A stretch of 64,000 nt of DNA. Origin: Octopus vulgaris (taxonomy: Eukaryota). The notes under the pieces were generated by a model, which was given only the letters and a program-made list of their open reading frames with translations, did not search any database and was not told the DNA's origin. A program made the position numbers and the translations under genes. Position 1 is the stretch's first letter, and every line of letters starts with the position of its first letter. Below are positions 3,251 through 14,410 of the stretch, piece by piece. The stretch is taken from contig OX597816.1 of assembly GCA_951406725.2 (NCBI GenBank), positions 5,456,001-5,520,000 on the forward strand. The letters are read 5' to 3'.

Positions 3251-4119
3251 ATCTAATCACACCGCACAATGGAGAATTATTCTACACGCTTGCAACTCGC
3301 AGAATATTTGGAAGAGGAAAAGCAACTCTCCTGGTTGAACTCATAAGACAGGCATGAAAAAGTTATAATTAATAAAGCCTTCGTCGATCCCAAATACAAC
3401 AATATCGGTTTCATTGTACGGTTTCAAATAAATCATTCTAGCCAATTAAATTCGGAATGGAAATATCTCCACAATTTAGACAGAAATTAAATACTTAACA
3501 CACCAGGAAAATATATTCTCCGCTTGATACCGAGAGAGTCTTTTATATTGCAATGTAGTTTTCTTATTAACACCGAGGAATCTCGTTACAGTAACGAATG
3601 ATGATATTTTATTCTTTAACAACCACAACAAAGCTTCTGACGTAATCCGTATACATCTAATTTAATTTCTGTTCAAATTATGCAGATAAAATTTCATATA
3701 ATTACTTTCTTAATTCAACAAGCAGCGCTAGATATCATACGCGGTGCATAGTAATGTGGGAAATACAGCGATAGATCATTTCTATTTTATGGCGAAAATA
3801 TAAACTTAGCATTGCTTGTGTCGTTAAATGGATCAAATTTAAACACGAAAAATTACAAAGCGAAATTCAGTTGAACATAAAAGAACTCCGCCTTCTTAAA
3901 ATAACAACTGCACATAAACGAAGAATTTGCTGCATGATACCAGTCAAAAGTATATTCTGTTCATTGATCTGCGCAACATAATCATAATGTGCTTATTGAA
4001 TTTAAGGGATAAAATTTTAAATGCAGTTTTCAAACGATAGTGACGTAATAACTTGATCCAGAGCATAAAATCACGTTAAAAATACTCAAGCTTAAGGATG
4101 TAAATGAAAAATATGGTCT

Positions 4120-5165
4120 CAGGTAAATAATTTAATTATTGCTTAAATACAATCGGTAGTATATTCATTAGTGAGATTACAATCACGGAAGTAATAAACT
4201 ACGGTAACTAACGCAATAGTTCTTCAGTTTTTGGTTAAAGTCATTAATTCCATTTATTTCCAGTGACAGTGTCTATAAGGTATGAGACTTACTATACATC
4301 TTATCTCTCTTTTAATGGCGATATATTTTTATGATAGTGAAAATGTCGAAACAGTTCTGACTTCAACCTTTGAAAGGTGAGATCGATGTAGGTGGTGTCT
4401 ATTTAAGCAGTGGAGGCGCAATGGCCCTGTGGTTAGGGCAGCGGACTCGCGGTCGTAGGATCGCGGTTTCGATTCCCAGACCGGGCGTTGTGAGTGTTTA
4501 TTGAGCGAAGACACCTAAAGCTCCACGAGGCTCCGGCAGGGGATGGTGGTGATCCCTGCTGTACTCTTTCACCACAACTTTCTCTCACTCTTACTTCCTA
4601 TTTCTGTTGTACTTGTATTTCAAAAGGGCCGGCCTTGTCACTCTCTGTGTCACGCTGAATATCCCCGAGAACTACGTTAAGGGTAGTACACGTGTCTGTG
4701 GAGTGCTCAGCCACTTACACGTTAATTTCATGAGCAGGCTGTTCCGTTGATCGGATCAACCGGAACCCTCGTCGTCGTAACCGACGGAGTGCTTCCCTAT
4801 TTAAGCATCACAATACTGATATTTATGCGCAAATGAAAGATAAGGAGGGGCTTCTTGAGGGTTGCAGCTCTGGGGAGACCCAGTTTTAGTACAGGATTTT
4901 GTCAGTGAAACACATTTAGACCTACCCGGTAAATTGATCGTTGAAAATTTCTGGCAGATAAATTATTTTACAGTGAATATAACACCTATAATTTCATGGC
5001 AAGGTAATAATATTGTGGATAAACACATCCTCGGTAAATTCACCATCGAATCAAACTTGTCGATGGTAAATTTCTTCGTCATACTTTTTATCAACAGATA
5101 TTTTAATGTTTTATCTACAAAATGATTACGTTTTTTTTTCAGTGACAATGGAAAAGAAATTCAAT
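4120..5165 (+). repeat. Local segmental duplication, copy 1 (partner 6500-7295)
   Basis: Shared colinear blocks, e.g. TTGCTTAAATACAATC, TTTTTGGTTAAAG, TCTTGAGGGTTGCAGCTCTGGGGAG, ATAAACACATCCTCGGTAAATTC, TGACAATGGAAAAGAAATTC. Confidence 0.9.
4410..4796 (+). mobile_element. tRNA(Arg)-like SINE, family C, full length
   Basis: GGCGCAATGGCCCTGTGGTTAGGGCAGCGGACTCGCGG head; 11-bp TSD CTATTTAAGCA (4399-4409/4797-4807); absent from the duplicate at 6500-7295. Confidence 0.93.
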
Positions 5166-6499: not shown

Positions 6500-7295
6500 C
6501 AAATCATTTAATCATTGCTTAAATACAATCATTGAATTGGTTATATATTCATTAACGAGAGTACAATCCCGGAAGAGATAAACTACTGTAATTAACACAA
6601 TCATTCTTCTTCGATTTTTGGTTAAAGCCATTTATTTCCTTTATTTATACGGACGATATGAGTGATACAATATATCTTGTCTCTCTTTTAATGACGATAT
6701 ATTTTGATGTCCGACATTGAAAGTGTTGAAACATTTCTGACTTCAACATTGGAACGGTGAGATCGATGTAAGTGGCGTCTGTTTAAGAATCAATACAATA
6801 ATAAATATGCGCAAACGAAGGGTAAGGAGAGGCGTCTTGAGGGTTGCAGCTCTGGGGAGGTCAGAACAGAATTTGGTCAGTGAAACATACTTTGAGATAT
6901 CTGGTAAATGTCTTGCAAACAACTTGCACATGCAAGTGCTACCAGTTAAAAGCTCCGTATACCGGAAGCTAGCAAGTGTATGGGGTCATCAGGAGAGAAT
7001 GCGCGCCGTTTCGGGGCCTACCTCTCGACGGCATCAATGCGCACCGGCTCCCCTCACTGATATGAAAATTTCTAGCAGGTAAACTATTTCGCAGCTGTAA
7101 TTTCATGGTAAGGCTGTTCCATTGCGAATAAACACATCCTCGGTAAATTCGTCATCGAACCAAATTCGTCATTGGTCAATTTCCACGTTATACTTTTTAT
7201 CAACAGAGTAAATATCTCGATAAATATTATTTGAAAGTTTTCGTTACACACAGTGATTGCATTGTATTTCACTGACAATGGAAAAGAAATTCGCA
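6500..7295 (+). repeat. Local segmental duplication, copy 2
   Basis: Colinear with 4120-5165; carries a private ~150-bp GC-rich insert at ~6910-7057. Confidence 0.9.
6986..7051 (-). ncRNA. Hammerhead-like motif with non-canonical strand order, within a ~150-bp insert
   Basis: Minus strand: GGAGCC-g-GTGCGC-attgat-GCCG-TC-GAGAGG-ta-GGCCCC-GAAA-CGGC-GCGCAT-TCTCTC-CTGATGA. Confidence 0.55.
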
Positions 7296-9019: not shown

Positions 9020-9399
9020 CATCCATGCAATCTTTCAGGATAGTAATGCACCAATTCACACAGCTAAAGTTGTTACTTAATGGCACAAGGAACATTCTAA
9101 TGAAGTTGAACATCTTATCTGGCCACCACAGTCCCCAGATCTCAATATTATTGAACATTTATGGTGCATTTTAGAAAAACAAGTAAGAAGTCGATATCCT
9201 CCACTATCATCACTACAAGAACTGGAGATTGTTTTAGCTGAAGAATGGACAAAAATTCCTTTGGAAACAATTCAAAATTTGTACGAGTCCATACCTCATA
9301 GAATTCAAGCTATAATTACTGCCAAAGACAGTCCTACCCTATATTAAACTAAATGTGTTTGAAATTTTAAGCTGTTTCCATTATTTTGTCCAACCCTTG
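9020..9399 (+). mobile_element. Tc1-family transposon 3' fragment (transposase C-terminus and right end)
   Basis: QDSNAPIHTAKVV..HLIWPPQSPDLNIIEHLWCILEKQVR..EEWTKIPLETIQNLYESIPHRIQAII; ends TCCAACCCTTG|TA. Confidence 0.9.
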
Positions 9400-13929: not shown

Positions 13930-14410
13930 TATGCGTGTGATCCGCGAAGCCTGATCTTTCTTTCTTGGTTCGACTACCACCCGTGATACATCACTTATAT
14001 TCCTTCCTATGACCTTCATCTCTTATGTCCCTGCCGTAAAGCTTTACATCCACACACGCCAGCTTAATCTAATTCGTCCTTAGTCGAAAGACACCTGTTG
14101 TTAATGTCCTGTTATTTGTATTTGTAATTGTGTACCATTTCTCCATTTTTCCGTCCCTGTTTTTGCATACATTCGCTTGCTTTCTTCCAAGGAATCTAGT
14201 GCTCTTAGCTTAGATTTTCTTGGGGCCGCCCAGATTGGAGCAGTCTCGAGTGTAACCGGCCGAAACTACTAATATAATCTGGCACTCGACTGAGGATAGG
14301 AAGCTCCGAATGCCCCGTCCTTATTTCTTCTTGTCCCTTTTTTGTATCGTCTAACTGTCCGCATGATTTGTTGTCTCCTATTACGTTCTTGTTCCATGTT
14401 TCTTTTTCGT
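13930..14410 (+). mobile_element. Putative Penelope-like terminal-repeat remnant
   Basis: TA-flanked, T-rich, carries a hammerhead-like motif; no ORF; classification by inference. Confidence 0.45.
14224..14296 (+). ncRNA. Hammerhead-like motif with non-canonical strand order
   Basis: GGCCG-c-CCAGATT-gg-AGCAG-TC-TCGAGTG-taac-CGGCC-GAAA-CTACT-aatat-AATCTGG-CACTCGA-CTGAGGA. Confidence 0.55.

Follow-up and report, generated by a model that had tools for sequence, protein, structure and literature searches.

The insert at 6.9 kb and its repeat family

The window, which is the whole stretch of 64,000 nucleotides analysed here, contains at 6.9 kb a short segment inserted in an older host repeat, and the minus strand of this segment carries the parts of a hammerhead core in an unusual order (Table 1). 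The first-pass annotation had described the segment as an insertion absent from a paralogous block, and the alignment bore this out: the block aligned up to 6909 and picked up again at 7058-7062, and the GC content was 0.54 within the insert vs 0.41 and 0.34 in the flanks. No clear target-site duplication was found; a few bases at each junction (7058-7065 at one of them) fit host and element alike.

Table 1. Positions of the insert, the paralogous block and the parts of the two hammerhead-like motifs in the window
Feature	Position	Strand	Remarks
Paralogous host block without insert	4109..5162	+	alignment
5'-truncated 3' end of high-copy retroelement family (family 1)	6908..7065	-	inserted in older host repeat
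Hairpin V first two bases and helix IV 5' strand, 6.9 kb	beyond truncation at 7065	-	by eye
Hairpin V remnant, 6.9 kb	7052..7065	-	3/5 pairs within window; pairing by eye from loose-end letters
Stem II 5' strand, 6.9 kb	7051-7046 with 7018-7013	-	5/6 pairs; G10.1 = 7051
Stem III strand overall, 6.9 kb	7028..7044	-	extension and 6-nt bulge; ends in U16.1
Stem III extension, 6.9 kb	7044-7039 with 7004-6999	-	6/6 pairs
Stem III, 6.9 kb	7032-7028 with 7009-7005	-	5/5 pairs including U16.1-A15.1; U16.1 = 7028
C17, 6.9 kb	7027	-	GUC site 7029-7027; cut predicted on 3' side by analogy with hammerheads
Stem I, 6.9 kb	7026-7021 with 6998-6993	-	6/6 pairs
Stem I strand, 2-nt linker and stem II 3' strand, 6.9 kb	7013..7026	-	stem II 3' strand = 7018-7013
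GAAA and stem III partner strands, 6.9 kb	6999..7012	-	GAAA = 7012-7009
Stem I partner and CUGAUGA, 6.9 kb	6986..6998	-	CUGAUGA = 6992-6986
Helix IV 3' strand (four C), 6.9 kb	6982..6985	-	directly after A9; four-G partner gone here, kept in family 1
Structured 3' tail, 6.9 kb	6908..6981	-	two hairpins and strands pairing by eye with family 1 upstream letters
Helix IV, second family (14.2 kb)	14179-14186/14297-14304	+	7/8 pairs; U-U at junction
Hairpin V, second family	14187-14194/14216-14223	+	8/8 pairs; abuts G10.1
Stem II, second family	14224-14228/14257-14261	+	complete layout 14179..14304
C17, second family	14245	+	stem III with extension present
Stem I, second family	14246-14252/14283-14289	+	complete layout
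CUGAGGA, second family	14290-14296	+	core block

The insert belongs to a repeat family, referred to as family 1, which was present whole or in part in 20 of the 24 runs listed (10 studies, covering five organisms and an insect metagenome). Family 1 contigs from four runs were aligned on window positions 6780-7200, with 3,827 contigs in run X1, which may have the same source as the window. The summed depth in X1 was ~2e5 to 1.4e6 over the insert vs 54-127 in the flanks; depth is no copy number, and the copies likely number in the thousands. The copies share one end, at 6905, 6908, 6909 or 6913, which is the 3' end of the ribozyme strand and lies ~119 nt past the cleavage site. In the other direction the copies matched to 7065, beyond which a nearly identical continuation of 30 letters was found in each of the four runs; the window copy has therefore lost its 5' part. 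Family 1 combines strong 5' truncation and a common 3' end, as in Naiad-type elements. The minus-strand 5' edge that the first-pass annotation had placed just upstream of the motif is a truncation point and not the start of the element. The 3' flanks of the copies are AT-rich, and the 6.9-kb copy lies outside any TA run.

Among 40 of the 43 variant rows listed, no change fell at CUGAUGA, GAAA or the UC site, in keeping with the expectation that these positions are kept across copies. Eight of the 13 changes listed in 6986-7051 were CpG transitions, and on these sequences the variation looks like neutral decay of dispersed copies, giving no covariation. Family 1 contigs span the predicted cleavage site; contigs cannot display ends, and the RNA status of run X13 is only guessed.

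Three contig observations accompany this alignment. In two contigs of run X13, a short segment near the 5' strand of stem II (window 7044) is missing and the upstream letters follow directly, a deletion variant of family 1. Run X19, an RNA library labelled insect metagenome, contains a 1,271-nt contig with family 1, with 10 differences and the same continuation, which may reflect contamination, mislabelling or a wider host range. One X1 contig joins 6859 to 7121, and depth halves over the interval; because 261 bases are skipped, a clean empty site was ruled out, and the joint may mark another haplotype in which a larger piece is deleted or replaced.

The permuted core

On the minus strand of 6910-7065, the elements of a non-circular hammerhead core follow one another in the order cleavage site, GAAA, CUGAUGA (S-G-C). 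All the parts that had been proposed for 6910..7057 were found in their places, with the pairing given in Table 1. The core has CUGAnGA, GAAA and an NUH site, the pairs A15.1-U16.1 and G10.1-C11.1, and stems I, II and III adjoining it. In both window motifs (6.9 kb and 14.2 kb), not one stem II pair follows CUGAnGA directly. Order and core agree between the two motifs, as the first-pass annotation had it, whereas the spacing is kept only partly and the stem III region differs. A canonical or dimeric fold at 6.9 kb was ruled out, as the CCCC after CUGAUGA cannot pair with the CCCC before GAAA. Stem II at 6.9 kb contains one A-C mismatch; position 7049 is absent among 40 of the 43 family variant rows listed, which ruled out private decay of this copy.

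Helices IV and V

By eye, the upstream letters of family 1 provide four G as partners for the CCCC behind A9 (helix IV), as well as a 5-bp hairpin (V) running exactly up to G10.1; in this reading the core and helices IV, V and II join without any unpaired base. Both helices had been missed in the first-pass annotation. Placed between A9 and G10.1, helices IV and V are predicted to close a four-way junction, and CUGAUGA is not followed by stem II because they intervene. The idea was drawn from the loose end of family 1; the 14.2-kb motif played no part in it and was used as the test. The complete layout was found there (Table 1), and the test was passed by 0 of 200,000 mononucleotide shuffles and by 389 of 100,000 random window positions.

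The 14.2-kb element (window 13940-14400, plus strand) has ~240 nt upstream of its motif and sits between TA-rich runs. A Pfam search of the 300 nt upstream of the motif gave no RT or GIY-YIG, nor any other protein family in the element.

The A-C mismatch in stem II of family 1 counts against the proposed layout, as the upstream letters offer a perfect alternative partner that overlaps IV and V. In this other register, a six-base partner just beyond 7065, by eye fully complementary to 7018-7013, would form stem II, and 7057-7050 would pair with 6985-6978 (7/8 pairs). This register is very improbable, since the stem II 5' strand follows V directly or after one base in the 14.2-kb copy, in the coral-type loci described below and in the Naiad consensuses, which points to 7051-7046. 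Judging from the letters, the alternative partner could act as a switch, in which both stem II registers may form.

Tests against chance

The descriptor for the S-G-C strand order was written after the motifs had been seen, so the independent tests of helices IV and V elsewhere carry more weight. It matched the 64-kb window exactly twice, at the 6.9-kb and 14.2-kb motifs. The false-positive rate on dinucleotide shuffles, which had been suggested as a check, came to 129 core matches in 4,049 locally shuffled windows, 75 of them with an upstream stem II partner; 27 matches in the same windows had a stem I of at least 6 bp. With the full four-way descriptor, 1 match was obtained in 2,996 shuffled windows. 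The 6.9-kb copy itself fails this descriptor because the 5' strand of its helix IV is lost, and for the same reason (half of helix IV is missing) this truncated copy is likely impaired as a ribozyme.

A chance match, or the scrambled remnant of a canonical hammerhead, would fit with a descriptor written after the fact, with unremarkable folding scores and with the Rfam results. Plain energy folding misses the 6.9-kb structure (z -0.85 and +0.31), which is explained by its crossing helices. Narrow Rfam scans of both window motifs and three further loci gave no hammerhead, the window motifs matched no Rfam ribozyme of any kind, and in the scan of the whole window the top 150 of 407 rows were all weak or microsatellite-driven. 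The shuffle rates and the recurrence of the layout in unrelated sequences speak against chance, as the first-pass annotation had argued. A remnant is likewise contradicted, because the S-G-C order cannot come from circular permutation, nor can it be produced when C-G-S is cut or duplicated in tandem, and the 43 nt after CUGAUGA contain no GAAA. Both forms of this explanation were considered scarcely credible.

Relatives in metagenome and viral contigs

A sequence-only pattern found 42 loci in viral contigs, none of which passed stems I and III or the full test. In the metagenome the same pattern gave 118 loci of ~1,700 estimated; 13 passed stems I and III, and 5 of the 118 passed the full four-way test. 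In none of the 13 was stem II pairing after CUGAUGA better than chance. Nine of them form two subfamilies of one type (coral-type), and two others (L060 and L080) resemble family 1. The remaining two (L078 and L155) lie in GC-rich sequence and passed the loose test with a stem I of 4 bp; they were taken for chance matches.

When 11 of the 15 coral-type loci matching by BLASTN were aligned (short or broken ones being left out), 93.0% of 516 cells were paired vs 27-46% when the alignment was slid. Helix IV, the extension of stem III and stem I showed one compensatory pair apiece. This covariation amounts to three events between two subfamilies, and two of the five measures failed against shuffles (355 and 481 of 500); the available alignment (A3) has 88% identity and represents one narrow family.

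The core and 3' tail of L060:1-140 (+) and L080:1030-1171 (-) resemble those of family 1, the tails weakly (54 and 60 of 20,000 shuffles score as high), which suggests, at the level of sequence, relatives of family 1 in another host. Both motifs begin at a contig end, and the IV, V and II 5' strands fall outside. The exact 22-mer of the insert had 0 matches in the viral and metagenome contigs.

At one metagenome locus (L096), the end of an ORF lies 330 nt upstream of the motif on the same strand and is 65% identical to P0028, a protein of 953 aa with an N-terminal GIY-YIG (E 7e-4), CxC, DKA and a C-terminal RT. These are the marks given for Naiads in the accessible text of PMC8557442 (N-terminal GIY-YIG, CxC, DKA, C-terminal RT), so L096 lies behind the end of a Naiad-type RT. 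It belongs to a different family from family 1 with the same layout.

Naiad consensuses

According to the parts of PMC8557442 that were available, Naiads lack canonical hammerheads, although a core or half core matching none of the descriptors is present in some; Craig et al. 2021 flagged some records as 'HHR_core' or 'HHR_half_core'. In the accessible supplement of that paper, the split layout with IV and V was found by eye at the 3' ends of at least 9 of 54 Naiad records, and relatives of the window motifs are thus linked to Naiads. These records are Amil, Aacu and Anas (near-identical corals), one Clytia record (-3 or -4_Chem), -2_Movir, Plae, EuTe (assigned by file order), Obim and Ovul, and they comprise six unrelated sets of helix letters. 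Helix IV is short in Obim and Ovul, and -2_Movir has a U-U junction as in the 14.2-kb copy. At least six records of the nematode region (File S5) have, by eye, a clean 3'-end type CSG with block C intact and the order C-S-G. Eckert et al. (PMC10085705, accessible text) have only two metagenomic type-CSG sequences, which might come from nematode-type Naiads. The ends of the Bfor, Esco, Ppla, spider and Darwinula records were partial or deviant by eye, and no such motif was seen at the 3' ends of Chem-1, Chem-2, -1_Movir and Omin. All these counts are lower bounds, drawn from places 25-49 of 62, 5-33 of 43, 5-13 of 25 and 5-23 of 23 for four core spellings in a file whose line breaks can hide motifs.

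The first-pass annotation had pointed to a Penelope parent with an RT/GIY-YIG ORF. The direction was right, leading to the Naiad clade, but no such ORF was found in the window: a Pfam search of 34 window ORFs gave nothing relevant and no RT or GIY-YIG remnant, and no Naiad protein aligned to the window in a tblastn of 39 proteins (best E 0.058). A tRNA scan of the window found no tRNA. The link of family 1 to a Naiad ORF is absent in the window, where the copy is truncated. None of five short motifs from both window families was found in the accessible Naiad supplement.

The same ribozyme could instead be carried in family 1 by a non-Naiad element, SINE-like or retrozyme-like, that captured the motif or evolved it separately. 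The window contains no ORF for it, family 1 differs from the octopus Naiad motif in the accessible part of the supplement, its copies look young, and the sequence beyond 7065 is known for 30 letters only. The age of the copies counts against Naiad parentage, as cephalopod Naiads are called long inactive in the accessible text of PMC8557442 whereas 2,186 of the 3,827 X1 contigs are at least 95% alike. Nevertheless, every ORF-linked example found is a Naiad, the fixed 3' end and 5' truncation fit a Naiad, and no second unit lies beside the window copy, so a non-Naiad carrier was judged unlikely.

Proposed structure and mechanism

We consider the insert to be, with a probability of about 0.65, the 3' end of a Naiad-clade Penelope-like retrotransposon or of a non-autonomous derivative, with a four-way, non-circular hammerhead core that is predicted to self-cleave after C7027. 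The sequences themselves show the layout, which recurs in other helix letters, as well as the constant 3' end and the loss of 5' sequence. The RNA order would be IV 5', V, II 5', III, the UC site, I, a 2-nt linker, II 3', GAAA, the III partner, the I partner, CUGAUGA and IV 3'. Stem II would stack on the core and IV on V, and the usual active site would form even though A9 and G10.1 are not chain neighbours. Cleavage after C17 would take place close to the element's 3' end, in transcripts that are tandem or read-through, as with hammerheads in other Penelope-like elements; once cut, the two pieces would stay attached through helices IV, II and III. As the genomic copies span the cleavage site, uncut or religated RNA would be the template for reverse transcription.

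In the accessible texts of the works concerned, the non-circular cores SGC and CSG cleave in vitro (PMC10085705), a viroid hammerhead tolerates one additional base at A9/G10.1 (PMC3705267), and a Poseidon element in vitro uses mainly uncut RNA as its substrate for insertion, cutting being dispensable (PMC11167929). Counting against a split-C ribozyme, block C was assumed to be uninterruptible by Eckert et al. (PMC10085705, accessible text).

Should the A9/G10.1 split disable catalysis, the conserved fold would cut negligibly or not at all and would be a binding or priming signal for the element protein. Such a role, which we regard as rather improbable, would agree with genomic copies that span the site uncut and with the finding, in another clade, that insertion in vitro can do without hammerhead cutting (PMC11167929, accessible text); in the openly searchable literature, no tested ribozyme with an A9/G10.1 split was found. 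It fits poorly with the retention of all catalytic bases across unrelated helix sequences in several phyla and with the intact-C type CSG of nematode Naiads, a type that cleaves according to the available part of PMC10085705.

With the self-cleaving four-way core as the preferred reading, there would probably be a hammerhead topology that the six permutations considered possible do not include, with CUGAnGA interrupted at A9/G10.1 and restored through a four-way junction; it would be active in many Naiads (cnidarians, an acanthocephalan, a crustacean, octopus), with nematode Naiads using the intact type CSG.

Comparison with known systems

The 6.9-kb motif has neither the C-G-S order nor the three-way junction of hammerhead types I-III. 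Of the features of type SGC (HRIMA-1 and variants; Eckert et al. 2023, PMC10085705, accessible text), it shares the S-G-C order, all conserved core bases and a short linker from I to II, typically 3 nt there and 2 nt at 6.9 kb. In type SGC, however, CUGAnGA runs straight into stem II, whereas at 6.9 kb block C is interrupted by IV and V, and the 5' strand of stem II precedes the cleavage block. Type SGC is also characterised by an additional helix connecting the far sides of stems I and II. Furthermore, the type-SGC RNAs came from metatranscriptomes and none from the genomes of known organisms, whereas the 6.9-kb motif is a genomic repeat. On its sequence, the 6.9-kb motif is a predicted hammerhead-like ribozyme outside types I-III and type SGC as defined. 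Type CSG (same paper and extent) has the same cyclic strand order, but its block C is intact, its open end is elsewhere and it has no four-way junction.

Naiads (Craig et al. 2021, PMC8557442, accessible text) have 5' truncation and a motif near the 3' end, as does family 1, and no structure is proposed for their cores there; a (TA)n target preference is reported for some of their families. Further Naiad traits are partial tandems or pseudo-LTRs and a tail of 30-40 bp; the window copy is single. The type I hammerheads of Penelope/Poseidon elements and non-LTR retrozymes (PMC11167929; bioRxiv 10.64898/2026.07.22.740005, both in their accessible parts) likewise lie near the element end in copies that span the site, but they have canonical three-way connectivity. 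Retrozymes form tandem arrays (same preprint), whereas the 6.9-kb copy is single and not type I. In the plus-strand hammerhead of CChMVd, the extra A10 shows that an insertion at A9/G10.1 leaves activity (PMC3705267, accessible text); that is one base in a canonical ribozyme, compared with two helices and a chain break at 6.9 kb.

In the searchable literature, which largely leaves subscription journals uncovered, no paper describing this topology was found, nor one reporting a permuted hammerhead for Naiads, and 'type-SGC' led to Eckert 2023 only. The accessible texts of PMC3088659, PMC6765202, PMC10162972, PMC13725137 and bioRxiv 10.64898/2026.07.22.740005 contain no such topology; that of PMC13725137 mentions hammerheads with additional helices, citing Weinberg 2015.

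If true, the proposed topology would explain why Naiads seemed to be without the hammerhead of other Penelope-like clades, and it would undercut the reading of that absence as proof of dispensability. Non-circularly permuted ribozymes would move from unassigned metatranscriptome contigs into animal genomes, where they would be common, in thousands of copies, and invisible to current descriptors. The stated rule that the CUGAnGA block is uninterruptible would be broken, and the helix entry point at A9/G10.1 could serve engineered switches.

Other repeats in the window

The paralogous block contains a GC-richer, SINE-like insert of ~390 bp (window 4408-4796) between 10-bp direct repeats, which presumably resembles a cephalopod SINE. 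A DDE transposase remnant (Pfam DDE_3, E 6.8e-11) was found on the plus strand at window ~9045-9200.
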